Source: an uncultured Candidatus Saccharibacteria bacterium (GTDB taxonomy: Bacteria; Patescibacteriota; Minisyncoccia; Phycocordibacterales; DATGWK01). Taken from it: 64,000 bases of DNA. Where the stretch lies: the NCBI GenBank assembly GCA_964356815.1, contig CAYHIR010000001.1, forward strand, positions 32,297 through 96,296. Direction: 5' to 3'. Position 1 is the stretch's first letter; each line of letters begins with the position of its first letter. Below are positions 4,296 through 62,578 of this stretch, piece by piece. Below the pieces are notes generated by a model. The model was given only the letters and a program-made list of their open reading frames with translations. It was not told the origin of the DNA and ran no database searches. Both the position numbers and the translations under genes were made by a program.

Positions 4296-5237
4296 TTAGT
4301 TCTTCAATTTTACAAAAGCCTTACCAGAAAATCGGACATCGACTTTTTCTACCCGATCAATAAAAGAGCCGCGAAATTCTACCTGCTTCGCCGCTACGAT
4401 AGACTCGATATTCTGCAGAGTTTGTTCGTAACTCATTTTACGATTTACAACTATCACGCCGCCATTGGCCAAATGAAGCTCAAGCTCGCTTTCGGAAATT
4501 TCGACTATCGAAACTGTTTTGAGTCCGAGTTTAGCAACATCTTTTACAAATGAATTTAGTTTTTCAAAAGAAACTTGTGGCATGATGTGTTGACCAACCG
4601 GCGTAGTAGAATCTTCTGGTGTTTTTAAGAAACCGTTCCACATTATAAACACATCGCCACCAAAGACTGGCGCTTCAGAAAAAATGTAGCCAGTTTTGTC
4701 TAGATAAAAACATTTTTGAGCGGCGTCGGCCGCGACATTGGCCGCACTAACCGCGACATCGCCGCTTCCGTCGCTATCCCCACACCAAAGTGCGGCCGGC
4801 ACACGCTCGCGCACGCTCACCACAAGATCGTGAGGTGAATTGAAAGAAACTTCAGCGAACTCGATTGTCTTAAACAAGTTTTTTATATCTGCTTCAATAT
4901 TCTCGCGCGGTGCCAAAAGCAAATTGTTTCGCGAAAGCACACCGAGAAAAGCTGTGGCTGTTTGTTTTTCAACGATCTTTTTTATTTCTGACTCGGGAAT
5001 AAGACTCGCTCCACGAACATGAACAGCGGAAAGAGAGACTTGCGGCGAAAAAGAAAATCTTGATAGACCGAAACCGCTGGCGATGACAAGGGCAAAGGAA
5101 ACCAACACGATAACCCATCTTTTGCGACGGCGACGTTCGGCGAGTGTAGCTGGACGCTTGCCACCACGAGTACTCATAGCGCCACGACTACTTATTCTGC
5201 CACTTTTTATCCGATTAATTTTTATTTTATTGGCCAT
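4296..5237 (-). CDS. ftsQ: FtsQ/DivIB-like cell division protein (basic N-terminus, one TM, POTRA-like domain)
   Basis: 313 aa. Arg/Lys-rich N-terminus, TM, then VHVRGASLIPESEIKK...VRERVPAALW, which matches the FtsQ POTRA pattern. Confidence 0.5.
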   Translation of the reverse strand: MANKIKINRIKSGRISSRGAMSTRGGKRPATLAERRRRKRWVIVLVSFALVIASGFGLSRFSFSPQVSLSAVHVRGASLIPESEIKKIVEKQTATAFLGVLSRNNLLLAPRENIEADIKNLFKTIEFAEVSFNSPHDLVVSVRERVPAALWCGDSDGSGDVAVSAANVAADAAQKCFYLDKTGYIFSEAPVFGGDVFIMWNGFLKTPEDSTTPVGQHIMPQVSFEKLNSFVKDVAKLGLKTVSIVEISESELELHLANGGVIVVNRKMSYEQTLQNIESIVAAKQVEFRGSFIDRVEKVDVRFSGKAFVKLKN

Positions 5238-5291: not shown

Positions 5292-6565
5292 CGTTCGATT
5301 TTTGTCTTTCCGCCCATGAATGGCTGGAGTGCCGCAGGAATATTTATCGAGCCATCTTCGTTTTGATTGTTTTCGAGCAACGGAACAAGAATTCGCGGAA
5401 TAGCGAGCGCGGTGTTGTTAAGCGAATGAACAAATTTGAGTTTGCCGTCGTCATCGCGATAACGAATGCCGAGGCGTCGTGCTTGGAAATCGTGGAAGTA
5501 TGACGCTGAATGAGTTTCGCGATAAGTATTTTCCGAAGGCACCCACGCTTCGATGTCGTATTTTTTTACTTGGCCCAAGCCGAGGTCGCCACCACAATTG
5601 AGCACAACGCGATACGGCAAACCAAGCGCCTGCATAATTTCTTCGGCATTGGCTGTGAGTTCTTCATGATGCTTCACCGACTCTTCATGGCTAGCTTCGC
5701 AAAGCACCACCTGCTCGTATTTATAAAATTCATGAACACGAATAAGACCTTTGGTGTCTTTGCCATGACTCCCTGCTTCGCGACGAAAACACGGAGAATA
5801 AGAAAGAATTTTTCGCGGCAAAGATTTTTTGTCGAGCACTTCGTCCATAAAATAACCCATGGTCGCCACTTCGGCCGAACCAGAAAGATGGTCGTCGTCT
5901 TGAGTTTTATACAAATCTTCTTCGCCTTGTGGCAAATAACCGGTGCCGATGAATGGCGCTTTTTTCACGAGTGAGGGAACGATCATTGGCGTGAAATTTT
6001 TGCCACCAAAATGAGCTAGGACAAAACTGCCAAGAGCTTGAGTGAGTAAAACAGCATCGTTCATTAATGTATAGCCGCGGAAACCAGCGACTTTTGCACC
6101 GCGTTCAAAGTCGGCCATGTTTAAATCGGCCATGAGCTCTAAATGATTTTTCGGCGTGAAAGAAAAATTTGGCTTCTCACCCCAAGTGCGGACCTCTACA
6201 TTTTCTTTATCACTTTTGCCTTCTGGCACAGACATGTCGGGAATATTTGGCACAGCAACCATGAGCGCCTGCCAAGCTTTTGTGGCTTCTTTAAGCTTAT
6301 CTTCTTCATCAGCCGCACTTTGCTTTATGGCGCGCATTTCTTCTATGAGTTTTGTGCGCTCTTCATCATTTGCGGCGGTGCCTGCGGCGGCGATTTTTTC
6401 ATTAGCAATTCCCTGTTCGGCCCGACGGACTTCCACAGTCGCCAAAAGCTTCCGACGGGCGTCGTCTACAGTAATGAGTCTTTGAAGATCGAAGCTTATA
6501 TGCTTCTTTTCGACCGCGGCCTTTATCAAATCTTGATTTTCTCTTATGAACTTTATGTCTAACAT
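5282..6565 (-). CDS. serS: Seryl-tRNA synthetase
   Basis: 427 aa; N-terminal coiled-coil arm plus class II core motifs. Confidence 0.9.
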   Translation of the reverse strand: MLDIKFIRENQDLIKAAVEKKHISFDLQRLITVDDARRKLLATVEVRRAEQGIANEKIAAAGTAANDEERTKLIEEMRAIKQSAADEEDKLKEATKAWQALMVAVPNIPDMSVPEGKSDKENVEVRTWGEKPNFSFTPKNHLELMADLNMADFERGAKVAGFRGYTLMNDAVLLTQALGSFVLAHFGGKNFTPMIVPSLVKKAPFIGTGYLPQGEEDLYKTQDDDHLSGSAEVATMGYFMDEVLDKKSLPRKILSYSPCFRREAGSHGKDTKGLIRVHEFYKYEQVVLCEASHEESVKHHEELTANAEEIMQALGLPYRVVLNCGGDLGLGQVKKYDIEAWVPSENTYRETHSASYFHDFQARRLGIRYRDDDGKLKFVHSLNNTALAIPRILVPLLENNQNEDGSINIPAALQPFMGGKTKIERAV

Positions 6566-6582
6566 ATTGGAATTAGTATAGC

Positions 6583-7608
6583 TTGCAGAGAGCTAAATTG
6601 CCACACAATATGGACGAATACCCAATAAAAATCATCCGGCGGCGCAACTTGCCGCCCATGCTTCAAGAAATTCCCCAGCCACCACCCCAATTATATGTGC
6701 GGGGTGATATCGACTGGCTGGGCAATGCTGGCGCGAGCGGCACGCGCGGCGAAAATGACCCGAAAATTTTATGCGTCGTTGGCTCACGACGAGCTACGAG
6801 CTATGGCCAAATGGCGTGTGAACAACTCATCGCTGGCTTAGCCGGACACAATATAGTGATCGTTTCGGGCTTAGCTCTTGGTATAGACTCGATCGCCCAC
6901 CGAGCGGCGCTCAAAGCTGGGCTCAAAACCATCGCTATTCCGGGGTCCGGTTTGGAATGGCGGGAAATTTATCCCAAAGTTCACTACGCACTGGCGCAGG
7001 AAATTTTAGAAAGCGGCGGAGCACTCGTCTCACCTTTTCCGCCAAATTTTACGGCTGCAAAATATAGTTTTCCCCAAAGAAATCGAATAATGGCAGGTCT
7101 CGCGCACGCGGTGCTCGTGGTGGAAGCACGCGAAAAAAGTGGCACACTCATCACCGCTCGACTCGCCACTGAATACAACAGAGATGTCGGTATCGTTCCC
7201 GGCTCAATTTTTTCCGAAAATTCCGATGGTCCACATCTATTAATGAGGCTCGGTGCGGCACCAATATGCAAAAGCGCAGATCTACTTGAGCTGCTCAGGA
7301 TTGAGACGGACACAGAGACAGAAAATTTGGCGGCGGAAAATTTACTCGGCACAAAAAATGGGACAACCGCGCCGAAAAATGTCGCGTCGAAAAAAATCTT
7401 CAACATTTCTCATTTCGCCGAAAAAAATAATGCTTTGGGCAAGAATGAAAAGTTCATAGCAAAAATTTTAAAAAGCCCACTGACCTTCGATGAGCTCGTC
7501 GAGCAATCCAAACTTTCAGCGCAAGAAGTAAACATTGCGCTGTCTAGTTTGGAGATAATGAAACTCGTTACCATTCGCGGCGGCATTATTACGCCAAATA
7601 TTTTTTGA
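6583..7608 (+). CDS. dprA: DNA processing protein DprA (Smf)
   Basis: 341 aa; Rossmann-like DprA core (VVGSRRATSYG...SGLALGIDSIAH...RNRIMAGL). Confidence 0.85.
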   Translation: MQRAKLPHNMDEYPIKIIRRRNLPPMLQEIPQPPPQLYVRGDIDWLGNAGASGTRGENDPKILCVVGSRRATSYGQMACEQLIAGLAGHNIVIVSGLALGIDSIAHRAALKAGLKTIAIPGSGLEWREIYPKVHYALAQEILESGGALVSPFPPNFTAAKYSFPQRNRIMAGLAHAVLVVEAREKSGTLITARLATEYNRDVGIVPGSIFSENSDGPHLLMRLGAAPICKSADLLELLRIETDTETENLAAENLLGTKNGTTAPKNVASKKIFNISHFAEKNNALGKNEKFIAKILKSPLTFDELVEQSKLSAQEVNIALSSLEIMKLVTIRGGIITPNIF

Positions 7609-7670
7609 CGGCCGCTACGGCGCGGCCAAATTTGCTTTAACCAAATCTTTGTAGTATTAGTTAATACGCC

Positions 7671-9947
7671 ATGAAACTACTTGTTGTTGAGTCGCCAGCC
7701 AAAGCGAAAACAATTTCCAAATATTTATCGGGCATGCCATCGGGAGAAAAATTTGAGGTTGTTGCGTCTGTTGGACATGTGCGCGATTTGCCAAAATCAA
7801 ATAAAAAAGCCATCGACATTGAGGCTGGTTTTGTGCCGCATTATGAAATTTCGCCGGGTAAAGAAAAAGTGATCGACGAAATTCGCCGACTCTCCAAAAA
7901 AGCCGACGAAGTTTTCCTCGCCACCGACCCCGACCGCGAAGGTGAGGCGATTGCATGGCACATTGCTCAGGCTGTGGGCTTAAAAAATCCGGAGCGCGTG
8001 GTCTTTCATGAAATTACAAAAGAAGCGGTGCAAGAAGCGCTAGAGCATCCGCGAAAAATAGACACGAATTTGCGTGAAGCTCAAGAAGCCCGCCGCGTAC
8101 TCGATCGACTCGTGGGCTACGACCTTTCCGGTCTAATTTGGAAAAAAGTTCGCTACGGCCTTTCTGCCGGCCGAGTTCAGTCGCCCGCTCTACGCATCAT
8201 AATGGAGCGCGAACGTGAAATCCGCGCATTTAAATCGCACGCTTTTTGGATAATTACGGCAGACACGGAGACAACGGGTGCGGCGAAAAAAGAACCGATG
8301 ACGCTCACCTGTTCTGAAGAACCGACGGAACTCAAAGAGGTGGAGCGGATCGTGGCCGCGGGCAATGCCGCTGGCAAAGCTGGCTCTAGCGACGCGAAAA
8401 ATGGCTGGCGCGTGATAGATGTAAAAGAAACAGCGGTCAAACGATCGCCGAAGGCCCCGTTCATTACTTCTACCCTTCAGCAATCAGCCAGTTCACGCCT
8501 TGGTTTTGCGCCGTCGAAAACTATGGGTGTTGCTCAGAGGCTATATGAGGCCGGACACATTACTTATATGCGTACGGATAGTACGAACCTCGCAGGGATG
8601 GCGCAAAAACAAATCGCCGCTGTGGTAAGCAAAAAATTTGGCGAAAAATATTTGAGTCCGCGCGTCTTCACCGCAAAAAGCAAAAATGCTCAAGAAGCTC
8701 ACGAAGCAATTCGTCCGACAAATTTCTCTGCCGAATCTGCTGGCCTCACCGACGAACAGAAAAAGCTCTACCGTCTCATTTGGCAGCGCACTGTCGCGTC
8801 ACAAATGACCGACGCTGAAACACTTCGCACAAAAATTACGGCGAATATCAGCGACGAAAATTCCGTCGCCACCGCCACCGAAAAAATTCCCGACTTTTCT
8901 ATCACCGGCTCACGCGTCATTTTTGCTGGCTGGATGGAAGCCGACGACATGGCAAACAAAGAAGACACGATTGTGCCAGCGGTAAAAATTGGCGAACCAC
9001 TCAAGCTCGTGGAAATAAAAACCGAAGAAAAACAAACCGAACCACCAGCGCGCTATTCTGAAGCCGGCCTCATTAAAGAATTGGAAAAACGCGGCATCGG
9101 CCGCCCGTCTACTTACGCTTCGATTATTAAGACAATCGAGGAGCGAGGCTACGTGGAAAAAATAAATAAAGCACTAATTCCAACAGACACCGGCGATGTG
9201 GTTTCAACATTTCTTGAAGAAAACTTTACCGATTACATCAGCGACACTTTCACCGCCGAAATGGAGGACAAACTCGACGACATCGCAAACGGCAAACGCG
9301 AATATTTGGAAACTCTCGAAAAATTCTACAAGCCTTTTAAAAAAGATGTGAAGTCGAAAGAAAAAATAGAAAAAATCACAAACCTTGGCAAAGCTGATCC
9401 GAGTCTCAAATGCCCAGTCTGTGGCGCAGGCATGATTATCAAACTCGGCAAGTCTGGCAAGTTTTTGAGTTGTGAAAAATTTCCAGATTGCGTTGGCGCG
9501 CGCACTATTACTGGCGAAGAATTAGAGGGCCCGCGCGAAACTGGCGAACTCTGCCCCGAATGTGCAACTGGCAAACTCATCGAACGCGATGGCAAATACG
9601 GCCGCTTCATTGCCTGCAACAATTATCCAAAATGTAAATTTGTAAAAAAAGATCCCGAGCTCGAGAAAAAAGCCTCAACCGGCGTCGCTTGTCCTGTCTG
9701 CAAAAAAGGTTTCATGATGGAAAAACGTGGTCGCTTCGGCCTCTTCTACAGCTGTAGCAATTATCCCGATTGTAAAAATGCCATCAAAGCCAAACCGACT
9801 GGCAATATCTGCGAGTACCCACGCGAAAAAGGCCCTTGCGGCGCCCTCATGATGGAAGGCACAAAAACTATTCCGGAGAGATGCAGTGACAAAATGTGCC
9901 CGAATCATAATCCGCATAAGTTGGAAGATTCTCCGGCAAAAAAGTAG
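7671..9947 (+). CDS. topA: DNA topoisomerase I with C-terminal zinc-ribbon repeats
   Basis: 758 aa; TOPRIM N-terminus (LVVESPAKAKTI), catalytic Tyr region (HITYMRTDS), multiple CxxC zinc fingers. smf-topA synteny. Confidence 0.9.
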   Translation: MKLLVVESPAKAKTISKYLSGMPSGEKFEVVASVGHVRDLPKSNKKAIDIEAGFVPHYEISPGKEKVIDEIRRLSKKADEVFLATDPDREGEAIAWHIAQAVGLKNPERVVFHEITKEAVQEALEHPRKIDTNLREAQEARRVLDRLVGYDLSGLIWKKVRYGLSAGRVQSPALRIIMEREREIRAFKSHAFWIITADTETTGAAKKEPMTLTCSEEPTELKEVERIVAAGNAAGKAGSSDAKNGWRVIDVKETAVKRSPKAPFITSTLQQSASSRLGFAPSKTMGVAQRLYEAGHITYMRTDSTNLAGMAQKQIAAVVSKKFGEKYLSPRVFTAKSKNAQEAHEAIRPTNFSAESAGLTDEQKKLYRLIWQRTVASQMTDAETLRTKITANISDENSVATATEKIPDFSITGSRVIFAGWMEADDMANKEDTIVPAVKIGEPLKLVEIKTEEKQTEPPARYSEAGLIKELEKRGIGRPSTYASIIKTIEERGYVEKINKALIPTDTGDVVSTFLEENFTDYISDTFTAEMEDKLDDIANGKREYLETLEKFYKPFKKDVKSKEKIEKITNLGKADPSLKCPVCGAGMIIKLGKSGKFLSCEKFPDCVGARTITGEELEGPRETGELCPECATGKLIERDGKYGRFIACNNYPKCKFVKKDPELEKKASTGVACPVCKKGFMMEKRGRFGLFYSCSNYPDCKNAIKAKPTGNICEYPREKGPCGALMMEGTKTIPERCSDKMCPNHNPHKLEDSPAKK

Positions 9948-17831: not shown

Positions 17832-20570
17832 CTACTTTGCCACCACCTCCCCAGGCATCATCGATCCTTCAATAATACTCCCCCGTCTTCCCTTCTTCAC
17901 CTCGAAAGTGAGCTCGCTTCCGGCGCTGAGAGCGCCATTTTTATCGCCACCTTTATCTGCATTCTTTAATCCCACCACCACAGAACCACCTTTTACCAAA
18001 CCCTTACTTAAGATGAGCGACGCGACGGGATTCAAAATTTTGTTTTGGATAAGACGCTTTAAAGGTCGTGCACCGTATTGCGGGTTGTAACCTTCACGGG
18101 CGAGGTAGGCCATGGCTGGTTCGGATACGTCGAGAGAAATTTCTTTTTGAGTGAGACGCTCTTTCACGAGTTCGATCTGAATGCGGACGATTTTTTCAAT
18201 CGCTTCGTGAGAAAGGACGTCGAAGGTGACGATGTCGTCGAGGCGATTGAGAAATTCTGGTTTGAAATAATCTTTGAGGCTGTTGAGCAATTTGCTTTTT
18301 ACTTCATCGTACGATTGTTTTTCGCTCGTCTCCACACCAAAGCCGATTTTTTGCATGCGATCGATGTATTGCGCGCCAACATTTGATGTCATGACGATAA
18401 TAGTATTTTTGAAATTCACCACACGGCCCTTGGCGTCGGTGAGACGGCCGTTATCGAGCACTTGGAGAAGAATGTTGAAGACCTCCGGATGAGCTTTTTC
18501 GATTTCATCGAAAAGAATCACCGCGTATGGACGATGACGCACGATCTCCGTGAGCCCACCACCTTCTTCATGGCCAATGTAACCCGGAGGCGCACCAATG
18601 AGTTTGGAAACAGAATGTTTTTCCATATATTCCGACATGTCGACACGAATAAGCGCGCGATCATCGTCGAACATAAAGTGCGCGAGAGCTTTGGTGAGCT
18701 CTGTTTTTCCTACACCAGTCGGACCAAGGAAAATAAATGAGCCGATTGGACGATTGGGATCGGAGATACCGGCGCGTGAGCGTTTTATAGTATCGGAAAT
18801 AATTTTCACGGCATTGTCTTGGCCCACTATGCGGCGCTGAAGAAATTCTTCCATGCGAGTGAGCTTCTCAGCTTCGGCTTCGAGCATGCGTGCCATTGGA
18901 ATGCCGGTCCAACGAGCCACGATCTCCGCAATGTCTGTCTCGGTAATTTCTTCACGCAAAATACTGCGCGAGCTCTGGAGTTTTTTTAATTTTTTGGTTT
19001 TTGTTTCGAGTTCTTTTTCTATCGCCGGAATTTTTCCATAGCGGATTTCGGCCACGCTCGCAAGATCTACACGGGCCTCGGCACCTTCAGCATCGAGGCG
19101 TAAACCTTCGAGCTGTTTTTTCATGTCTTTTATTTCGGCGAGCGTCTCTTTTTCGTTTTTCCATTTGAGCTCGATCTCTGATGTTTCTTCTTTCAGATCG
19201 GCAATGGCACGCTCGATTTCTTTGATGCGAGTTTTGACCTTCGGATCTTTCGAAGTTTTTACCTCCTTAGAAAGCACCTGACGCTCTATTTCGAGCTTCA
19301 TTACTTTTGAGTGAACTTCTTCAAGCACCTGCGGCATATTTTCGAGTGAAATGCGGAGGAAAGAAGAGGCTTCGTCTATAAGGTCGACAGCTTTGTCGGG
19401 CAAAAAACGATCGGTGATGTAGCGGCTGGAGAGATTGACCGCCGCGCGAATGGCTTCATCTGTAATCCGCACACCGTGATAAAGCTCATATTTTTCTTTT
19501 AAACCACGCAGAATGGTGATGGCATCTTCGATAGATGGCTCATTTACATACACGGGTTGAAAGCGACGCGTGAGCGCTGGATCTTTTTCGATGTGTTTTT
19601 GATATTCCTTTATAGTAGTGGCACCAATGGCTCGGAGCTCACCGCGCGCAAGAGAAGGCTTGAGCATATTTGATGCATCAATAGAGCCCTCAGCCGCACC
19701 AGCGCCTACGATAGTGTGTATCTCGTCTATGAAAAGAATAATTTTACCGTCGGAGCGTTCGATTTCTTTAATTATATTTTTGAGACGCTCTTCAAATTCG
19801 CCGCGATATTTTGTACCAGCGATTAAGAGGCCGAGGTCGAGCGAAACCAATTCTTTATCTTTAAGCGACTCCGGTACATCACCAAGTGCCATCTTAATAG
19901 CCAAACCTTCAGCGATCGCAGTTTTCCCCACACCAGCTTCGCCGATGAGAATCGGATTATTTTTTTTGCGACGAGAAAGAATTTGCACGATGCGAGAAAT
20001 TTCATTGTCGCGGCCAATAACCGGATCGAGTTTGTTTTCTTTCGCCATTTTTGTGAGACTGCGCGTATATTTGGCGATTGATTTCATTTTCTTTGGCGCC
20101 TGCACGTCAGCCGTTGAGCTATGTTTGAGTTCGTCGAGAATTTTGAGAACACTCGCTTTGTCTATTTTGAATCGTGCTAAGAGCTCGCGAGCCGCGCCTG
20201 GCGCTTCAATCACCGACACAAAAAGATGCTCCGTGGAAACAAATTCGTCGCCTAAGCTCGTAGCGATTTTTGTACTGCCTTCAATGGCCTGCGCGAGTTC
20301 GGGGGTGAGATAAATCTGATACGAAGGCGAGAGTGTAGTACTTCCCTCCGGACCTTCAATAGACTCGAGAATAGAATCGGTGAGAAGAATGGAATCGATT
20401 TCCATTCTGTCTAAAATAGAAGTCACCATACTTTCTTCTTGCAAAATAAGTGCCGCGAGCAGATGAAGAGGGTTGACATGATTTTGACCACGCTCAATAG
20501 CCAGCTCATGCGCCTTGCGAATAGCCTCTTTGGCTTTGGTTGTGAAATGATTGAATGGGGGCATTGCCAT
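17832..20570 (-). CDS. clpB: ATP-dependent chaperone ClpB (two AAA+ modules, middle coiled-coil, extended C-terminus)
   Basis: 912 aa; Clp N domain, Walker [10 protein letters not shown] and GPTGVGKTE, coiled-coil M-domain. Confidence 0.9.
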
Positions 20571-24713: not shown

Positions 24714-25142
24714 ATGGATAACACAGAAAAAGACTTTGACAGATGGGGTTTAGAGAAAAAATATACTCATACTTATTACAGGAAAATAATTTTTTACGAA
24801 CGAGAAATTTGGTGGGCAAAAATCGGTGTGAACGTAGGAGTAGAAATTGACGGAAAACATGAGCTTTTTCTTCGGCCTGTAGTTTTATTAAAAAAATTTA
24901 ATAAACATATGGTTTTGATCGTGCCAACCACAGGCAAAGAAATACAGGATGAATATCACATTCCTGTTTCAGGAGAAGACGGTAAAATCTACCATGTTTG
25001 TATTTCCCAAATTCGAACCATTAGTACGAAGAGGTTATTTAGAAGAGTGGGTAAAACAGATAAAGAAAGTTTTACATTGCTTATTAGCGCAACCTTAGAG
25101 ATGATTAGAAAAAATACCGTGAACAACGAAACCCCGCATTAA
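24714..25142 (+). CDS. MazF/PemK-family endoribonuclease toxin
   Basis: 142 aa; REIWWAKIGVNVGVEIDGKHELFLRPVVLLKK...LIVPTTGK...ISQIRTISTKRL matches the PemK/MazF SH3-like barrel signature. Hairpin terminator at about 25127..25160. Confidence 0.7.
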   Translation: MDNTEKDFDRWGLEKKYTHTYYRKIIFYEREIWWAKIGVNVGVEIDGKHELFLRPVVLLKKFNKHMVLIVPTTGKEIQDEYHIPVSGEDGKIYHVCISQIRTISTKRLFRRVGKTDKESFTLLISATLEMIRKNTVNNETPH

Positions 25143-27410: not shown

Positions 27411-27553
27411 GCTCAACAAGCTCAACCGACCAGCACTACGGAGTGCTGGTTTTTTGTTGACAAATTTTACAAACATGATACAATCCTAAAGGATACTGAT
27501 GCGAGTGAGTAGCTCGTTGAAAACAAACATCGAAAAACAAACGGAGGTAAAAA

Positions 27554-32348: not shown

Positions 32349-32882
32349 TTATTGTACACCTTTTTTAAAAATCATGCCGTAATGATGTGTACCAGCATTT
32401 ATTCTTTTGTCCAACACAAAACCATTTTTCAGAAAAAGTTCTTTGGCTGAAGCTTCGGAAAGCAAAGTGTCGCTCGCTGGTCCGAGTACGCGCGAAGAAT
32501 CCGACCAATCTATAAGCAAAACTCTACCCTGCGGACGCAAAATTCTAAAAATTTCCGCCAAAACGACATCTCTTTTTTGTATTTGAAACAAAACGTTACT
32601 CAAAATCACTCTATCTATACCGCTACTTTTCAAACGCGAACCATTTGGCTTTTCCAAATCAACCCAAAGCGCGTCCAGATTGCGAATGTGTTGATGACGA
32701 GCCTCGCGCGCGACGCTCTCCACCACCTCTTTTTTTATTTCGAGCGCATACACATGGCCAGTCGCCCCCACCATTTTTGCCGCCGCGAATGCATAGTGAC
32801 CGATACCAGCACCGAAATCGGCCACCGTCATGCCCGGTATCAAATCTATCTGGTCCAAATTGTTCTTGGGGTTTGAGAACAT
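32349..32882 (-). CDS. Class I SAM-dependent methyltransferase
   Basis: 177 aa; motif I VADFGAGIGHYA; Methyltransf_11-like. Confidence 0.8.
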   Translation of the reverse strand: MFSNPKNNLDQIDLIPGMTVADFGAGIGHYAFAAAKMVGATGHVYALEIKKEVVESVAREARHQHIRNLDALWVDLEKPNGSRLKSSGIDRVILSNVLFQIQKRDVVLAEIFRILRPQGRVLLIDWSDSSRVLGPASDTLLSEASAKELFLKNGFVLDKRINAGTHHYGMIFKKGVQ

Positions 32883-32907: not shown

Positions 32908-33029
32908 TAGCACAACAGTTTTATGTGTTGACTGAGTGACTCTCGGAAGCCGACGGGCTGAGAGTGAGGCGCGATTCGAGCACCGAATCGACGCCGGTCA
33001 CGAGGGCGACACATAAAACTGTTGTGCTA
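32908..33029. repeat. Hairpin element with perfect 20-bp terminal inverted repeats (TAGCACAACAGTTTTATGTG / CACATAAAACTGTTGTGCTA) and 82-nt core; the gyrA stop codon lies in the right arm
   Basis: Direct reading. Core contains GGAAGCCGACGGGCTGAGAGTGAGG, which resembles the core of the element at 53831..53941. Confidence 0.6.
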
Positions 33030-35528
33030 GAAGCAGATCAACGAAGCAATCTTGTCTTTTTCTCTAAGTTTCATGATTCTTACTCCTTGAGTTTGTCGTC
33101 CCAAAGAAGGTATCTCTTTCACATCAAGCCTAATCACCTGACTTTTCTGCGACATAGCAACAACTTCCTCAACTTCGTCGGTAATTAGAGAAGCAGACAT
33201 TATATCGCCTGTCTTTGGAGTAACTTTTGAGGTTTTTATACCAGAGCCACCGCGCTTTTGGATTTTGTATTCGTCGAGCTCGGTCTTTTTGCCGTAACCG
33301 TTTTCGCTGATGATGAGAAGGGATGGGTTAGTGGCAGACTTAGAAGCGGCAAGAGCAGCGATGACCGTATCGCCACGACCAAGCTTCATCGCACGCACAC
33401 CGCCAGCACCACGACCCATTTCGCGAATGTCGGATTCTTTAAAGCGGATAGACTGACCCTTGGCTGTCACGATCGCCGCGCTGTCGCCTTTGTCGACAAA
33501 AGATGCAGAGACTAAGCTGTCGCCCGCCGCGAGCTTGATAGCGATGAGACCACTGCGACGCACATCGTGGAAACTCGAAGCCTTCACCTTTTTGCCCACG
33601 CCCTGCTTAGTGATCATGAGAAGTGCGAGCTCATTTGCGCGCTTGATTTCTTTTGGCATTGTCAAAACAGATGTAACTTTTTCATCGTCGGCAAGAGCGA
33701 TGTAATTTAAAATTGATTTGCCTTTTGTGGCGCGTTTACCTTCTGGCAATTCGTACATTTTTATTTGAAACACGCGGCCTTTGTTTGTGAAAAATAGAAC
33801 ATCGCTGTGAGTGTTGGCCATGAGGAGAGTCGTCACAAAATCTTCGTCTTTTGTATCGAGATCGACGACACCCACACCGCCACGGCGTTGTTTTCTAAAT
33901 TCTTCTGGATTTGTGCGCTTAATGTAGCCGCCAGCAGTGAGCACGAGGGCATTTTCTTCTTCCGGCACCAAATCTTCCACAGAAAGTACCTTAGCGCCAC
34001 CGGCTAAAACATTTGTTTTGCGAGCATCGCCGTGTTTTTCGGCAACTTCTTTAAGCTCGGTTTTGACGATGTCGGAAATTATTTTTACGCTGGCAAGAAT
34101 TTTTTTGCAGGCTTTAATAAATTCTTGAACGGCTGCGAGTTCGTCTTCGATCTTTTTGCGCTCCAAGCCAGCGAGTTTTTGCAAACGCATTTCCAAAATA
34201 GCGGTGGCTTGAATGGCAGAAAAACCAAACTCTTTCATCAAATTGCGATGGGCATCTGGTGTATCTTTCGAAGCTTTGATGAGCTTGATTATTTTATCGA
34301 TATGATCGAGGGCTTTTGAAAGACCGAGCAAAATATGCTCGCGATCTTCAGCTTTTTTTAGATCAAACTCCGTGCGACGGCGCACCACGACCTTGCGATG
34401 AGCGATAAACTCGGTGAGCATGCTCTTCAGAGAGAGTGTTTGTGGCACACCATCTACGAGGGCGACGAAATTGCAATGGAAAGTGTCTTCGAGCTGGGTG
34501 TGTTTATATAATGTATTTAAAATTTGTTGCGGATGAGTATTGTTTTTGAGATCGATGACAATGCGAATGTCTCTTGTGGACTCATCACGAAGCGCTTTAA
34601 TGCCCTCAATCTTTTTTTCGCGCACCAGATCGGCAATTTTTATAATGAGATCAGACTTATTGACACGATATGGAATAGCAGAAATAACGATTTGAAAAGT
34701 GCCCGACTTCGTCTCCACTATTTCAGCAATGCCACGCGTGACGATACCGCCACGGCCTGTTGAATAAGCGTGGGTAATATCTTTTCTATTAAAAATGACA
34801 CCGCCAGTAGGAAAATCTGGACCTTTGATGTATTCCATGAGCTCTTCCACAGCGGCTTCTGGCTTATCTATCAAAAGGTTTACCGCACCAGCCACCTCGC
34901 CCAAATTGTGCGGCGGAATATTTGAGGCCATACCAACGGCGATACCGAGCGTGCCGTTCAAGACTAAATTTGGCGCGGCAGATGGCATCACCACAGGCTC
35001 TTTGCGAGTGGAGTCATAATTTGGTCGCCAATCGACCGTTCCTTTATCAATATCACGAAGCATGTCGCCAGCAATGCGCGACATTTTTGTTTCGGTATAA
35101 CGCATTGCGGCGGCTGGATCGCCGTCTATATTGCCGAAGTTTCCTTGGCCAAGAGCGAGCGGATAGCGCGTAGAAAAATCTTGCGCCATTTTTACGAGCG
35201 AGTCGTACACGGCCACATCGCCGTGCGGATGATAGCTTCCGAGCACATCGCCCACCACCACCGCCGACTTTCGAAACTTAGCCGAAGCCGTGAGGCCGCG
35301 TTCGTGCATCGCAAAGAGAATGCGGCGATGGACAGGTTTCAAGCCGTCGCGCACATCGGGCAACGCACGCGCAGTAATAACCGACATCGCGTAGTCGAGA
35401 TACGACTCTTTCATTTCTGTCGTGATATTGCGCTCAACGACAGACTGATGAACAGGCTTTATTTCGCCGCCGCCGCTGTCGCCAGCTGAGCCTTTTGCCT
35501 CTGAGTTTTCGCCTTTTTTGCTAGCCAT
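33027..35528 (-). CDS. gyrA: DNA gyrase subunit A
   Basis: 833 aa; catalytic region (AAMRYTE), beta-pinwheel C-terminal repeats. Confidence 0.9.
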
Positions 35529-43769: not shown

Positions 43770-43785
43770 TAGGAACGCAGAAAAA

Positions 43786-43933
43786 TTTGCTCGGTCCAGC
43801 AGGAAATTTTTCGAGGATTATGGCTAAAGCCATGACAGCTCCTCGGCTCAGAAACACAAAGGTAAACCTTTGTGTTTCTCTCGCCCTACGTCGCTGATAA
43901 GTGAGCGCGCCCAAAGGCAGGCACGCGAACGGT
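43786..43933. repeat. Partial, TIR-less copy of the 52215..52352 element (inverted orientation) with a 76-bp insertion bearing a perfect 12-bp-stem hairpin (43851..43880)
   Basis: 43786..43826 matches the reverse complement of 52272..52312 (1 mismatch in 41 nt). 43903..43933 matches the reverse complement of about 52229..52265. Confidence 0.55.
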
Positions 43934-51704: not shown

Positions 51705-52211
51705 ATGGGGGGTGATATAACAAAGTTAATTTTAAAAAACATAGACATGGCAAAAGACCGCAGATCATTTTTTGAGAGATTAACTGGCGCAGTCCGTTTG
51801 CCAGACGACGATGATTCGCGCGATTTAAAAATTCAAGCCGAGGGTGACGACGATTCTGCCGAATTAGAACCTGCCGAAGGCCAACTTATTGTCGATGTCT
51901 ACCAAACTCACAACGACATTATCATCAAAACCATGGTGCCAGGTGTCCGCCCTGAAGATTTGGATATAAATATCACCCGTGAAATGGTGACAGTGAAATG
52001 CAGGCGCGAAACCGAGCGCACCGTAGCCGACGGCGACTACTTTCACCGCGAGCTTTACTGGGGTAGTTTCTCTCGCACCGTTATGCTTCCTCAAGAAATA
52101 GATATCGACGGCGCCGACGCAACAGAAAAACACGGTCTTTTAATAATTAAATTACCGAAACTAGATAAAAATAGGCAGACGAAGGTGAGGGTGAAGAATA
52201 GTGGGAATTAG
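51705..52211 (+). CDS. Hsp20/alpha-crystallin small heat-shock protein (alternative start at 51747)
   Basis: Alpha-crystallin domain (QLIVDVYQTHNDIIIKTMVPGVRPEDLDINITREMVTVKC...GLLIIKLPK). Confidence 0.8.
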   Translation: MGGDITKLILKNIDMAKDRRSFFERLTGAVRLPDDDDSRDLKIQAEGDDDSAELEPAEGQLIVDVYQTHNDIIIKTMVPGVRPEDLDINITREMVTVKCRRETERTVADGDYFHRELYWGSFSRTVMLPQEIDIDGADATEKHGLLIIKLPKLDKNRQTKVRVKNSGN

Positions 52212-52214
52212 GTA

Positions 52215-52352
52215 GACAAAATCTCCGTAGTGAGTTTCTCAAACCGTTCGTGCGCCTCCTGCGGGCGCACTCACTTAATCCTCGAAAAATTTCCTGCTGG
52301 ACCAAGCAAATTTTTCTGCGGCAGTTTTCGAAACTCACTACGGAGATTTTGT
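52215..52352. mobile_element. MITE-like element: perfect 24-bp terminal inverted repeats (GACAAAATCTCCGTAGTGAGTTTC / GAAACTCACTACGGAGATTTTGTC) around a 90-bp core; directly after the hsp20 stop
   Basis: Direct reading. Core has an internal 7-bp hairpin (GTGCGCC/GGCGCAC). A partial inverted copy of the core is at 43786..43933. Confidence 0.6.
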
Positions 52353-52356
52353 CTTG

Positions 52357-52809
52357 TTAATTTACGAAATAATTCTTTTTTCTTAGAAGATAGGTGGCGA
52401 TAAAAATACTCGGAATAATCCAAGATAGGAGTGTAAAAATTGTCACGAAATAAATAATATTTTCACCTAAAGCTATATCTTGCGGGGAAAGCGGCGTATC
52501 ACTCAAAACTTCGAAAGTACCTCCGTTCCACAAAATAGCAAGAATGTCCATAAAATTAAGGACGGCAAAATATATCGAGAATATTATCGCTGTCTTTCTG
52601 CCATCTTTATTTTTTTTAGATATTCCCCAGAAACAAAAAATTAAGATAAATAGAATTCCAAAATTCTCTACAAGTGCAAAATTGTCTTCTAATAATATCG
52701 GCCCCTTACCAAAAAAATTTAACGTCGTTGAAACAATCGCCAAGCCGATGAAAAACAAAACTAACGCTATCCCTATTGGCATTTGCCCTGGCGTGTTTAT
52801 ATTTTTCAT
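52357..52809 (-). CDS. Hypothetical 4-TM membrane protein, AT-rich
   Basis: 150 aa; four hydrophobic helices; no recognised motif. Confidence 0.45.
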   Translation of the reverse strand: MKNINTPGQMPIGIALVLFFIGLAIVSTTLNFFGKGPILLEDNFALVENFGILFILIFCFWGISKKNKDGRKTAIIFSIYFAVLNFMDILAILWNGGTFEVLSDTPLSPQDIALGENIIYFVTIFTLLSWIIPSIFIATYLLRKKNYFVN

Positions 52810-52847
52810 GAAATATGATTAAGTCGACAATATATATCTAGTAACGG

Positions 52848-52920
52848 TGCCGAGGACCGGGCTCGAACCGGTGACCCCATGCTCTTCAGGCATATGCTCT
52901 ACCAACTGAGCTACCTCGGC
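52848..52920 (-). tRNA. tRNA-Phe (anticodon GAA)
   Basis: Minus reading: GCCGAGG UAGCUCAGUUGGUAGAGC A UAUGC CUGAAGA GCAUG ... CCGGTTCGAGCCCGG ... CCTCGGC A. Confidence 0.8.
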
Positions 52921-53047
52921 GTTGCGTAAACTTCTGATTCTGCGGTGACCGGAAATTTCTGCTGAAATTTCCTAACCCTCGGCCTCTTCGGCCTGCGTAG
53001 TCAATTCAAAACTTTAATTTACTCTCGCGGACGAACTAACCATACCA

Positions 53048-53314
53048 TTAACCCCCAAAAGCCTTCAAAGCGCCTTGAATGTTGCTGTAATCGTTTGAAA
53101 AACTGCCGTAGACCCCCATCAACTGATCGACATACGGCTGAATGACATAGTATGCACCAACGGACAGACCGATAATCACTAGCCAATAAACGACCCGAAA
53201 GGCCTGAGAAAACCTCATACTCCGACGCATACTGCGAAGTAGGTGGTTGTTTTCCTCGGCCAAATCAAAGGTTTTTTCAAGCAACTCGCGATCTTTCGGG
53301 TCCATTCTGGGCAT
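53048..53314 (-). CDS. Small membrane hypothetical protein
   Basis: 88 aa; one TM helix (VVYWLVIIGLSVGAYYVI). Confidence 0.4.
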   Translation of the reverse strand: MPRMDPKDRELLEKTFDLAEENNHLLRSMRRSMRFSQAFRVVYWLVIIGLSVGAYYVIQPYVDQLMGVYGSFSNDYSNIQGALKAFGG

Positions 53315-53830: not shown

Positions 53831-53941
53831 GTAAGCACACAAGTGTTCTGAAAAGACTCCGCGGAAGCGCTTGGCGCTGAGCGGGAGGAAAATTTTCAGA
53901 AGAAAATTATTCCGTGCTTTTCAGAACACTTGTGTGCTTAC
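53831..53941. repeat. Hairpin element with perfect 25-bp terminal inverted repeats (GTAAGCACACAAGTGTTCTGAAAAG / CTTTTCAGAACACTTGTGTGCTTAC) and 61-nt core, 7 nt from the tRNA-Arg 3' end
   Basis: Direct reading. Core contains GGAAGCGCTTGGCGCTGAGCGGGAGG, which resembles the core of the element at 32908..33029. Confidence 0.6.
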
Positions 53942-53948
53942 GCAGATA

Positions 53949-54020
53949 TGCCACCGGCAGGAATTGAACCTACAATAACGCCTTAGGACGGCGCTGTTAT
54001 ATCCGTTTAACTACGGCGGC
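53949..54020 (-). tRNA. tRNA-Arg (anticodon CCT)
   Basis: Minus reading: GCCGCCG UA GUUAAACGGAUAUAAC A GCGCC GUCCUAA GGCGU UAUU GUAGG UUCAAUU CCUGC CGGUGGC A. Confidence 0.75.
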
Positions 54021-54955: not shown

Positions 54956-56119
54956 ATGCAAATGGGTGAGCTCAGAGACGTTGTAAAAAACTTCCCAAAG
55001 TATCCTGGGACGATAGAAAAATCACCAGCGTCTGTTTGTAATGATGGTTTCCCAGGTACATTTAACATGAGCTACAGCGAGGCAGAAATGATTGAATATT
55101 TTGGTCAATATTTGGACTATAACAAAGACCTCATTTATTCAAAGATACAGCCGGTTATTAGATATCAAGATTGGAAACATATTGCAGATGCCGATGAACA
55201 TAGTTATCGCTATCTAAGTCTTTTTGACCTTGCCGATATTGGCGGTGCGATCATTTTAAAAGAACAAAAAAATGTGAAGGGGGTGATTCATTTCTGCGTT
55301 AAAAATCTGTACACATTTCTTATTGAAAATTTGAAATTAAAAAAAGAGAATTTGAGAATAAGTTTTTTTCCGGGAGGTGACGTGAAAACAGCGACAAAAG
55401 GTAAATACGATTTTGATTATCAGTTACCGTCGGATGAAACAGTGAGTGTTTGGAAAGAGCTGGGACTTAAAGAAGGACAATTCCTGCCAGAATTTTCCAG
55501 AGACACCCTTCTTGCGGTTAACATATTTGGCTTACCTACACCCTGGGGTTTCAGACATGAAGTAAATTATCTGCACAAAGGAAAATTATTAGACATAGCA
55601 ACATTTGAGTACATAATTTATCGCCCTATTTTCAAAGAGGGTAAAATTGTTGATTTAAGAGAATGGGAACATTTATTTTCTATTTCAGCCGTAGGATTAG
55701 ATAGAATTCTTATGGTGGTAAACGACTTAGAAAAAACTACGGACTGTCCGCACATAAAACCACTTATTGAACTCTGTTTAGAGAAATCAAAGAATAAAGA
55801 TGAAAAAAAGGCCATAATTGCCGCTCAAGCTATACGTTCACTTCATAGGGTTTTTACAGATTGTGACTCGTTCACTAATTTAACCAGAAAACGAAAAGAA
55901 AAAGTGAGAAATTTCTATACAGGCATCAACTCGAGTTTTAAATCCCTGGGTATAACTGATGGATCCAACCTACTAGACGAATTGCTCACTCTGAATAGCA
56001 CTCTGCAAAATTACTATCCGGAATTAAGAAACTCTATAAAAATAACAAAGGAAGAAATTCTTGCTGGACTTTCAAGACTTGGAAAAAAGAGGCTGAAGAT
56101 TAAGAAGGTGGTAAAGTGA
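54956..56119 (+). CDS. Hypothetical protein, AT-rich (weak resemblance to class II AlaRS catalytic-core motifs)
   Basis: 387 aa; segments LSLFDLADIGGAII and SAVGLDRILMVVNDL loosely resemble the AlaRS TFFEMLGN and GMGLERL motifs. Unverified. Confidence 0.45.
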   Translation: MQMGELRDVVKNFPKYPGTIEKSPASVCNDGFPGTFNMSYSEAEMIEYFGQYLDYNKDLIYSKIQPVIRYQDWKHIADADEHSYRYLSLFDLADIGGAIILKEQKNVKGVIHFCVKNLYTFLIENLKLKKENLRISFFPGGDVKTATKGKYDFDYQLPSDETVSVWKELGLKEGQFLPEFSRDTLLAVNIFGLPTPWGFRHEVNYLHKGKLLDIATFEYIIYRPIFKEGKIVDLREWEHLFSISAVGLDRILMVVNDLEKTTDCPHIKPLIELCLEKSKNKDEKKAIIAAQAIRSLHRVFTDCDSFTNLTRKRKEKVRNFYTGINSSFKSLGITDGSNLLDELLTLNSTLQNYYPELRNSIKITKEEILAGLSRLGKKRLKIKKVVK

Positions 56120-62077: not shown

Positions 62078-62151
62078 ATTATTTTATTGTGTCTAATTAT
62101 AACCCGCGACTGACAAAACAAAAACCCGCTTTAGACGGGTCTTTGTTATTT

Positions 62152-62578
62152 GTTTGCTTGTGTCTATAAGCCGAATTCTGTACTCCACGATCACCGCCGA
62201 AGCGGTGCCGCTAAGCGATAAACATTTATCTGCCCTGTGAGTTACCCCACGGGTCAAGCGACTCTTTTTTCCAAAACAGCAGTTTTTATTCTGAAGTTTC
62301 AAAAAAACTCGGTCTTGCACTTAGGTAAGGATTTGGCCGTTTCACCTCGAAAATTACTTTTCGAGCTCATCCTCGAATCGAGGATGCCTCCCCCATTTCG
62401 GGTTCGGCGTCTCTGTTCGCACCTCGCAGATTGCTCTGGACGGGCGTTACCCGCTACCCTCCTGCCGTGACACCTGCGGAAATATTTCTATTTCCACCAC
62501 GCCACGACAAGTGTTCGGACTTTCCTCCCACATCGCTTGTTGCCAAGCTTTGTAAGCGTTTACCCGACACAAGCTAGA
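62152..62578 (-). ncRNA. rnpB: RNase P RNA (bacterial type)
   Basis: Minus-strand reading gives CR-I GGGAGGAAAGUCCGAACAC (reverse complement of 62510..62527), a CR-IV-like ACAGAAUUCGGCUUAUAGAC near the 3' end, P1 complementarity (GCUUGUGUC at the 5' end / GACACAAGC at the 3' end), and an intrinsic terminator ACCCGUCUAAAGCGGGUUUUUG downstream. ORFs 62093..62320 and 62237..62470 overlap it and are rejected. Confidence 0.75.

Follow-up and report, generated by a model that had tools for sequence, protein, structure and literature searches.

In the window (i.e., the whole 64,000-nt stretch of DNA analyzed in this work), the gyrA gene, which encodes a protein with PF00521 and PF03989 domains and a 100% match named DNA gyrase subunit A, is directly followed by a palindromic element, E1, and then by a gene for a SAM-dependent methyltransferase. 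The order gyrA-methyltransferase is kept in relatives. A second full copy of the element (E2) adjoins a tRNA gene, and a third, decayed copy (E4) was also found. The plus strand of E1 is the strand with purine-rich loops and is named the E strand. The features of these loci are as follows:

32349–32882, minus strand: SAM-dependent methyltransferase gene, downstream of E1
32908–33029, plus strand: E1, full copy of the palindromic element (covariance-model match of 78–86 bits, E ~1e-17 to 1e-19)
32908–32928: left arm of E1, TAGCACAACAGTTTTATGTGT
32929–32935, plus strand: 5' side (TGACTGA) of a 7x7 internal loop between the outer arm and P1; partner GAGGGCG at 33002–33008
32936–32940, plus strand: junction-proximal helix P1 (GTGAC), pairing with GTCAC at 32997–33001
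32942–32964, plus strand: hairpin A of E1 (stem CTC/GAG, internal loop GGA/GA, top AGCC/GGCT, loop GACG)
32965–32967, plus strand: junction strand TGA of E1, its G and A being invariant in the family
32968–32995, plus strand: hairpin B of E1 (4-bp GGCG/CGCC, bulged A at 32991, 7-bp CGATTCG/CGAATCG, loop AGCAC)
33009–33029: right arm of E1, ACACATAAAACTGTTGTGCTA, its final three bases being the complement of the gyrA TAG stop
33027–35528, minus strand: gyrA
52938–53011, minus strand: E4, third copy, decayed (38.1 bits, E = 3.8e-7 with the first model; 56.6 bits with the second)
53831–53941, plus strand: E2, second full copy (arms 53831–53855 and 53917–53941, core 53856–53916)
53949–54020, minus strand: tRNA-Arg(cct)

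Palindromic elements of the window

An inverted-match search located the E1 arm at 32908–32928 (plus strand) and at 33009–33029 (minus strand) without a single mismatch, and none of 100 shuffled sequences gave such a match. An earlier note on this DNA, made from the sequence alone, had described perfect arms of 20 bp separated by 82 nt; the perfect pairing stands, while the arms are in fact 21 bp long and 80 nt apart. The same note had placed both the last codon and the stop of gyrA in the arm. The stop codon is indeed inside, since the CTA at 33027–33029, the outermost triplet of the palindrome, is the TAG stop of the minus-strand gyrA, but the last sense codon pairs at only two of its three bases and lies outside the perfect arm. 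No T-run follows the hairpin on either strand, as had been noticed before. Folded as RNA, E1 reaches −72.2 kcal/mol (z = −10.9), and none of 200 shuffles was equally good. Within its internal loop, a tandem G.A/A.G adjoins P1, and the GA/GA mismatch recurs in two other copies of the family (L100:74-152 and L100:6073-6155).

On the other side of E1, the minus-strand end of the left arm (TGCTA) runs into the extended -10 box of the methyltransferase gene (TGCTACAAT), and TCAACA inside the element is a -35-like hexamer, which together give a promoter-like site on the minus strand (32931 to 32904). The TGCTAYAMT box (TGCTATAAT/TGCTATACT) is conserved at sister loci. As E1 abuts both the gyrA stop codon and this box, it fills the whole spacer from the stop codon to the next promoter.

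The 25-bp-arm hairpin that had been reported beside tRNA-Arg is E2. Its 25-bp arms are perfect, and only 7 nt separate it from the 3' end of the tRNA-Arg(cct) gene, to which it is antisense. Ten other contigs of the species carry it unchanged. E2 folds as RNA at −64.4 kcal/mol (z = −11.0; 0 of 200 shuffles equally good) and, like E1, is flanked by no T-run on either strand. The arms of E1 and E2, previously described as different, are not wholly so, because their outer ends are alike (GTAGCACAACAGT vs. GTAAGCACACAAGT). Neither arm sequence matched any other site when searched across the window, and a role of the arms as guides was rejected on this ground. The core motif said to be shared by the two elements is real, but not the N8 spacing given for it, as this pattern has no matches even with three mismatches allowed. 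The motif reads GGAAGC-N6-GCTGAGAGTGAGG in E1 and GGAAGC-N7-GCTGAGCGGGAGG in E2, and the gapped pattern gives two matches vs. 0.08 expected.

A covariance model constructed from 10 other copies, with E2 excluded, scored E2 at 54.7 bits (E = 2.5e-11) and also recovered E4. E1 and E2, whose relationship had been proposed in the earlier note, are therefore homologous and part of a larger family with covarying helices, and a chance similarity between them is refuted. With the second model and the filters switched off, exactly three family copies were found in the window, i.e., E1, E2, and E4; a weak match at 18193–18253 (17.6 bits, E = 0.05) lies inside the ClpB coding sequence and was treated as chance. 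E4, which had been missed at first reading, is located between a minus-strand ORF (53048–53314) and the minus-strand tRNA-Phe gene (52846–52920), 36 nt after the former (88 aa) and 18 nt before the latter. It has no long arms and has lost the lower stem of hairpin B, and other contigs of the species carry it unaltered.

An orthologous site of E2 was sought through the neighbouring 387-aa protein (54956–56119, plus strand), whose relatives (L134 and L135) are not syntenic. No Pfam domain is present in this protein itself. Precomputed matches to PF01411 (alanyl-tRNA synthetase class IIc core) exist for some homologues, and the protein may be a stand-alone AlaRS-like fragment.

Another long hairpin, E3 (52206–52362), is located between a convergent hsp20 gene and a membrane-protein ORF, and consists of 39-nt arms (87% complementary) and a 79-nt core of two hairpins. 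It was matched by neither covariance model and was rejected as a copy of the E1/E2 family; it represents a different family of the same general design. A 45-nt hairpin module of its core (52276–52320) recurs with 97.8% identity at 43776–43820, in the spacer after ftsZ, beside a perfect 12-bp hairpin (GAAACACAAAGG-TTTA-CCTTTGTGTTTC, approximately 43845–43872). Together, these repeats make up the second family of modular hairpin repeats in this genome. Two further features of the window may be mentioned, namely a class A RNase P RNA (62151–62575, minus strand; 102.5 bits vs. a gathering score of 100), with several large insertions relative to the model, and an ORF for a MazF/PemK-like toxin (24714–25139, plus strand) between two tRNA gene clusters.

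Family size, fold, and covariation

A pattern scan of metagenome contigs recovered copies with the same core and other arms in contigs from well H41 of the Hainich aquifer, and four further copies were found in the flanks of the pattern-selected loci. The covariance search gave 21 matches, representing 18 distinct copies, in 151 kb, mostly within contigs of the same aquifer sample. The contigs of the window also come from Hainich well H41, with a coverage of about 21, which is the same sample and coverage as for L095–L106. It is thus likely that most of the copies, at least 16, come from a single genome or population, that of the window.

A pattern scan of genome contigs was dominated by a Streptomyces coding sequence (GCTGAGCTGGAGG), the sole real relative being L060, a MAG more distantly related (GC 0.40), which carries two adjacent family copies in opposite orientations (7529–7813), one of them with an extra inserted hairpin. 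All 19 pattern matches within viral contigs were rejected by the covariance model, BLAST searches against phage and plasmid collections gave no match, and about 63 kb of relatives at 74–83% identity contained no family copy. Long inverted repeats were found only where the family occurs. The family occurs in one lineage of Patescibacteria (Paceibacterota/Parcubacteria), and the literature search returned no description of such an element in Patescibacteria. E1 belongs to a multi-copy palindromic repeat, not described before, in the genome of a groundwater member of the Patescibacteria.

The covariance-model searches with E1 and E2 suggested in the earlier note thus yielded further copies and no Rfam family. 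A scan of the whole window with Rfam 15 at the gathering threshold gave no match to the element. At E < 10, E1 and the E2–E4 region gave no match to any class, all self-cleavers included, and four other loci were likewise without a match; the only matches were noise (12–23 bits vs. cut-offs of 35–95). The classes covered comprised hammerhead, twister, twister-sister, pistol, hatchet, SRP, 6S, and Y RNA.

Copies of the element are about 100–130 bp long and consist of an A+T-rich stem of 20–35 bp, almost perfectly Watson-Crick, around a G+C-rich three-way-junction core of about 65 nt. In the common fold, the arms lead into P1, which is followed by hairpin A, the UGA junction, hairpin B, one G, and the return into P1. 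Hairpin A has a 3-bp base, a G-N-A/GA internal loop and a top of 4–6 bp, whereas hairpin B is built of 4 bp (GGNN/NNCC), a conserved bulged A, a 7-bp stem, and a variable tip, the tip being the hypervariable, exchangeable part. The same fold was given independently by RNAalifold.

Standard pairs account for 95.3% of 530 cells, compared with 31–49% when the partners are slid, and double changes occur in 22 of 30 pairs; these values were reached by none of 500 shuffles. The P1 pair at columns 10/98 is seen as GC, AU, UA, and CG across the family, the top stem of hairpin A as AGCC/GGCU, AGCGC/GCGCU, GGCC/GGCC, GGAA/UUCC, and GGUCGC/GCGACC, and hairpin B (helix 4) is 99.5% paired, with double changes in 9 of its 11 pairs. 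Such strong pairing statistics show that the structure is under selection or actively maintained. It had been suggested that compensatory changes in the arms be set against conservation in the core; the arms proved to be locus-specific, but the core helices themselves covary. Lack of additional copies, lack of covariation, or an insignificant core similarity would each have spoken against the original observation, and since 18 copies, covariation, and an E-value of 2.5e-11 were found instead, the observation is meaningful. The helix-preserving compensatory changes are a feature of structured RNAs in general.

It should be stressed that the pairs are of a particular kind. The core comprises 497 Watson-Crick, 8 GU, and 5 AC pairs among the 530 cells, with 6 single-side changes of the G-U type against 103 double changes, and the outer arms comprise 232 Watson-Crick, 4 GT, and no AC pairs. 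With 8 G-U vs. 5 A-C and equal numbers of the two orientations (see below), the strand signal of a structured RNA was not seen. Folded as single-stranded DNA, both strands are equal (−43.7 vs. −41.8 kcal/mol; z of about −11 to −12). The unpaired part of the core is different in this respect, as all of its conserved bases (G-N-A/GA, UGA, the bulged A, and the G) are purines on one strand, and G.A pairs are possible on this purine-loop strand only. Moreover, the plus-strand RNA of E1 is 11 kcal/mol more stable than the minus-strand one, while the strands of E2 are about equal.

Position of the copies and comparison of orthologous spacers

All copies are intergenic and none was found inside a gene. 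For eight, the distance to a stop codon is between −6 and +13 nt, and in three, i.e., E1, L103:8803-8919 (after rplL), and L100:6055-6173, the stop codon itself is the start of the element; the last of these fills its whole spacer, running from the TAA stop of rplI to a complementary TTA, with which the convergent rpmA gene stops. Housekeeping genes (rplL, dnaB, bacA, rluA-like, and gyrA) are found next to the copies, and five copies adjoin tRNA genes. At L109, one copy (778–902) is wedged between two tRNA genes, 1 nt after the first (706–777) and 25 nt before the second (927–1000), and another copy (544–630) lies upstream of the first. With respect to the gene at whose 3' end they lie, five copies are sense and five antisense, and orientations are mixed within 2–3 kb (minus, minus, plus at L103).

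In its position, a stable stem-loop directly downstream of the 3' end of a gene, the element resembles an intrinsic terminator. However, E1 and E2 are long, A+T-rich, and branched, not short, G+C-rich unbranched stems with an immediate U-tract. One subfamily (L096b, L103a/b, L105, and L107) has A-tract...CCCC / GGGG...T-tract arms like those of bidirectional terminators, and the T-tract is limited to this CCCC-arm subfamily. The genome also has canonical short terminators, e.g., at 27428–27451.

No transposase, integrase, or reverse transcriptase gene was seen among the neighbouring genes examined, and no HUH, RAYT, Y1, or integrase gene in any of the sequences examined. No target-site duplication was visible in 16 flank pairs, and the flanks contain no conserved promoter upstream of the copies. 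There is also no conserved terminal repeat, since the outer arms are unrelated between most copies and only the inner 12 bp or so are alike (TTTTGAAGTNAC-like).

The gyrA spacer was compared with those of four relatives. In L110 (gyrA 94% identical in protein and 83% in DNA) the element is present in the same orientation. In L111 (83% gyrA identity) the spacer carries a canonical terminator instead (ACGCCGCCC-N8-GGGCGGCGTTTT), and the extended -10 box of the downstream gene is conserved right after this terminator slot; in L113 (80%) only weak hairpins are found. At L114 (79%) the same spacer (4867–4939) contains a different long hairpin with A/T-rich arms (AAAAAAGTCTGGAATA...TATTCCAGACTTTTTT) and an unrelated G+C-rich tip. 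A side observation at L113, a sister Patescibacteria contig, concerns a 916-aa protein (5366–8116) with weak precomputed Pfam matches to MVP_shoulder and Vault_3. The check for absence from sister genomes proposed in the earlier note gave a mixed picture: E1 is absent from the gyrA spacers of L111, L113, and L114, which are too diverged to define an empty site, but present in L110. Judging from this comparison and from the relatives without copies, the element occupies a terminator slot and appears to have been gained or lost within this clade. No insertion polymorphism exists among the 10 contigs of the species, no IS was seen in the sequence examined, and as no clean pair of a filled and an empty site was found, we can only infer that the element is mobile.

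When E1 is compared with its counterpart in L110, 2 of 37 nt are changed in the arm, loop, and P1, far less than in the gyrA DNA; overall, the E1 ortholog is about 95% conserved, compared with 83% for gyrA DNA, which indicates sequence constraint or recent exchange. The junction, hairpin A, and the lower part of hairpin B are conserved in sequence, while the tip of hairpin B varies (CGATTCG-AGCAC-CGAATCG in the window vs. AGATTTC-AACA-GAAATCT in L110), and the L110 tip is identical to that of a paralog, L096:109-188. Likewise, L096b and L105, at different loci, have 24-nt arms and hairpin A in common and differ in their tips, whereas L103a and L107 share loops and tip but not arms. The copies are mosaics, a pattern such as would be expected from exchange between dispersed copies. 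Two other scenarios were considered. Frequent flip-flop inversion of the core between the arms is unsupported, the orientation being the same in the 10 contigs of the species and in L110. Insertion into the loops of pre-existing terminator hairpins is also unsupported: a search for such a hairpin in its "empty" state, with matching arms, gave nothing, and L096b and L105 have their outer arms in common at different loci.

Nature of the element

Several known groups of repeats and structures share some features with the element. REP sequences and BIMEs of Enterobacteria and Pseudomonas, associated with RAYT transposases, are multi-copy, extragenic palindromes found at gene 3' ends and in convergent spacers, in either orientation and as mosaics, and in BIMEs the inverted arms are accompanied by a conserved central linker to which the protein IHF binds. 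The element is similar as a multi-copy, mosaic extragenic palindrome at gene 3' ends in either orientation. However, REPs conserve a 20–40-nt arm with a GTAG head, whereas the element conserves a branched core and varies its arms; it is also three to four times longer, and neither a conserved GTAG-headed palindrome nor a RAYT gene was seen in the sequence examined, GTAG being present in E1 only.

Hairpin MITEs (e.g., Correia/NEMIS of Neisseria, ERIC/IRU, pneumococcal RUP/BOX/SPRITE, and bcr1 of Bacillus) are intergenic, about 100–150 bp long, bounded by terminal inverted repeats, and affect termination, mRNA stability, or RNase III processing. In size, in hairpin-forming inverted repeats, and in multi-copy intergenic spread the element is like them, and it is dispersed and devoid of coding capacity, as they are. 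In contrast to MITEs, conserved terminal repeats and target-site duplications were not found; furthermore, the core of a MITE is not expected to covary helix by helix, which the core of the element does.

Integron attC sites are imperfect palindromes at gene 3' ends; to function, they must fold as a single strand in which extrahelical bases are conserved, and their apex can be branched. The element is likewise an imperfect palindrome at the 3' ends of genes and is branched at the tip, but the arrangement is reversed, as attC conserves the stem ends (R/L boxes) and varies the tip, while here the tip is conserved and the stem variable. No attC boxes (RYYYAAC...GTTRRRY), no nearby integrase, no cassette array, and no uniform orientation were found. 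Finally, the element shares with hammerhead and twister-sister ribozymes a three-way junction, purine-rich strands, a tandem G.A beside a helix, and a long closing stem, but it has no Rfam match at E < 10, no hammerhead CUGANGA/GAA, and junction strands of only 0–3 nt.

In our opinion, with a probability of roughly one half, we are dealing with a non-autonomous palindromic repeat of the interspersed kind, which is spread and homogenised by DNA-level processes and occupies terminator slots. Its features resemble those of a repeat at the DNA level more than those of a conventional RNA gene. The earlier note had preferred a functional structured RNA, e.g., a ribozyme or processing signal, and had offered a modular family of palindromic elements as the alternative. 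The former agrees with the covariation but not with the missing Rfam match, the 5:5 orientation, and the 8 G-U vs. 5 A-C pairs, whereas the latter fits better, the copies being dispersed, mosaic, and placed at gene ends, even though the terminal repeats and target duplications of a mobile family were not found. Counted against a DNA-level repeat are the lack of these features and of any transposase, integrase, or reverse transcriptase gene, the strand-limited purines and G.A pairs, a pattern proper to a strand-specific folded molecule, the E1 ortholog being much better conserved than gyrA DNA, and the missing U-tract of E1 and E2. The strand-neutral evidence was weighed more heavily than that for a strand-specific fold, because it is quantitative and covers all copies.

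An unlikely alternative is that the purine-loop strand acts as a structured RNA, folding into a three-way junction that serves as a protein-binding or processing module, perhaps freed from the long double-stranded stem by RNase III. Strong covariation in all four helices, the invariant unpaired purines on one strand, the tandem G.A in P1 of some copies, and the better folding of E1 plus-strand RNA all favour such a molecule, as does the L110 ortholog, in which the junction, hairpin A, and lower hairpin B keep their sequence and the tip of hairpin B varies; without a match among known families, it would be new. Nonetheless, with random orientation, host transcription would make the wrong strand in half of the copies, and no conserved promoter precedes them. 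G-U pairs are not enriched over A-C, single-side changes are almost nil, the strands of E2 fold about equally well, and there are many copies per genome. A small self-cleaving ribozyme is a less likely version of the same idea, as the hammerhead, k-turn, and twister motifs do not fit by eye and none is found in Rfam. In this comparison, the element lacks the hammerhead core CUGANGA/GAA and has one variable base between G and A where the bulge of a k-turn must have 3 nt, the GGAAGC of twister and SRP stands in other contexts, and the likeness to 7SL/Alu ACTCGGGAGGCTGAGG is superficial; Rfam agrees in each case.

It is quite unlikely that one strand extrudes as a branched hairpin of single-stranded DNA, recognised by a HUH/RAYT-like nuclease or a tyrosine recombinase that would move or recombine the element by analogy with REP sequences and attC sites. 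The near-pure Watson-Crick pairing, the unpaired bases conserved on one strand, the stable single-stranded DNA folds, and the multi-copy, mosaic character of the family are consistent with such a site. E1 also starts with GTAG, the tetranucleotide at the foot of E. coli REPs, which is a lead only; most copies have no such start. The sequence examined contains no candidate enzyme gene (HUH, RAYT, or integrase), the arm ends are unconserved and do not fit the attC boxes, and orientations mixed within 2–3 kb (L103) disagree with the strand bias expected of elements dependent on the lagging strand.

Ordinary host terminators that resemble each other, or a chance likeness of two unrelated hairpins, are highly improbable: copies do lie at gene ends, one of them replaces a terminator in the gyrA spacer, and one subfamily has A-tract/T-tract flanks, but a model blind to E2 finds it, a branched core of about 65 nt is common to 18 distinct copies at different loci, which terminators do not need, and E1 and E2, with long A+T-rich stems, branched tips, and no U-tract, coexist with canonical short terminators.

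If the element is a repeat propagated at the DNA level, its spread and symmetry may result from copying from one locus to another, from gene conversion among copies, and from template switches inside the palindrome. Such copying would change both sides of a pair at once. Moreover, if one arm were copied from the other, the arms would be kept, and possibly extended, as perfect palindromes, and could grow until reaching a stop codon or a promoter, which would explain both the near-absence of wobble intermediates and the arms that end at stop codons or at the -10 box. Transcribed from either strand, the element would form a very stable hairpin, i.e., an orientation-independent structure of the transcript end, which might stand in for a terminator, protect the 3' end, or serve as a processing site of the RNase III type. 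It would separate gyrA from the next gene with its own promoter, and would mark the ends of tRNAs. The invariant junction and loop bases might form a surface read by a putative protein that copies or maintains the element.

A bolder proposal, to which we assign a low probability, is that the element represents a new class of folded nucleic acid whose active form is the purine-loop strand, either as RNA or as branched single-stranded DNA. In the RNA version, a three-way-junction RNA of about 65 nt on an RNase III-type double-stranded stem could be a bacterial analogue of hairpin-embedded small RNAs or a protein-docking module, and in the DNA version the branched site could serve a putative novel recombinase of Patescibacteria. 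If either were true, the perfectly paired, locus-specific arms would come from a symmetrising copying mechanism undescribed for bacterial repeats.

A conserved core with arms that are free to change but perfectly paired is the reverse of what is seen in MITEs, REPs, and attC sites, which makes the family a good case for studying palindrome symmetry. The covariance model allows annotators to mask or label these elements, which would otherwise be mistaken for novel RNA genes. The genomes of Patescibacteria are small and streamlined, and presumably poor in repeats. This family has at least 16 copies and fills terminator slots after core genes (gyrA, rplL, dnaB, and tRNA genes). It thus bears on how transcripts are ended and processed, and on how selfish or domesticated DNA survives, in minimal genomes.
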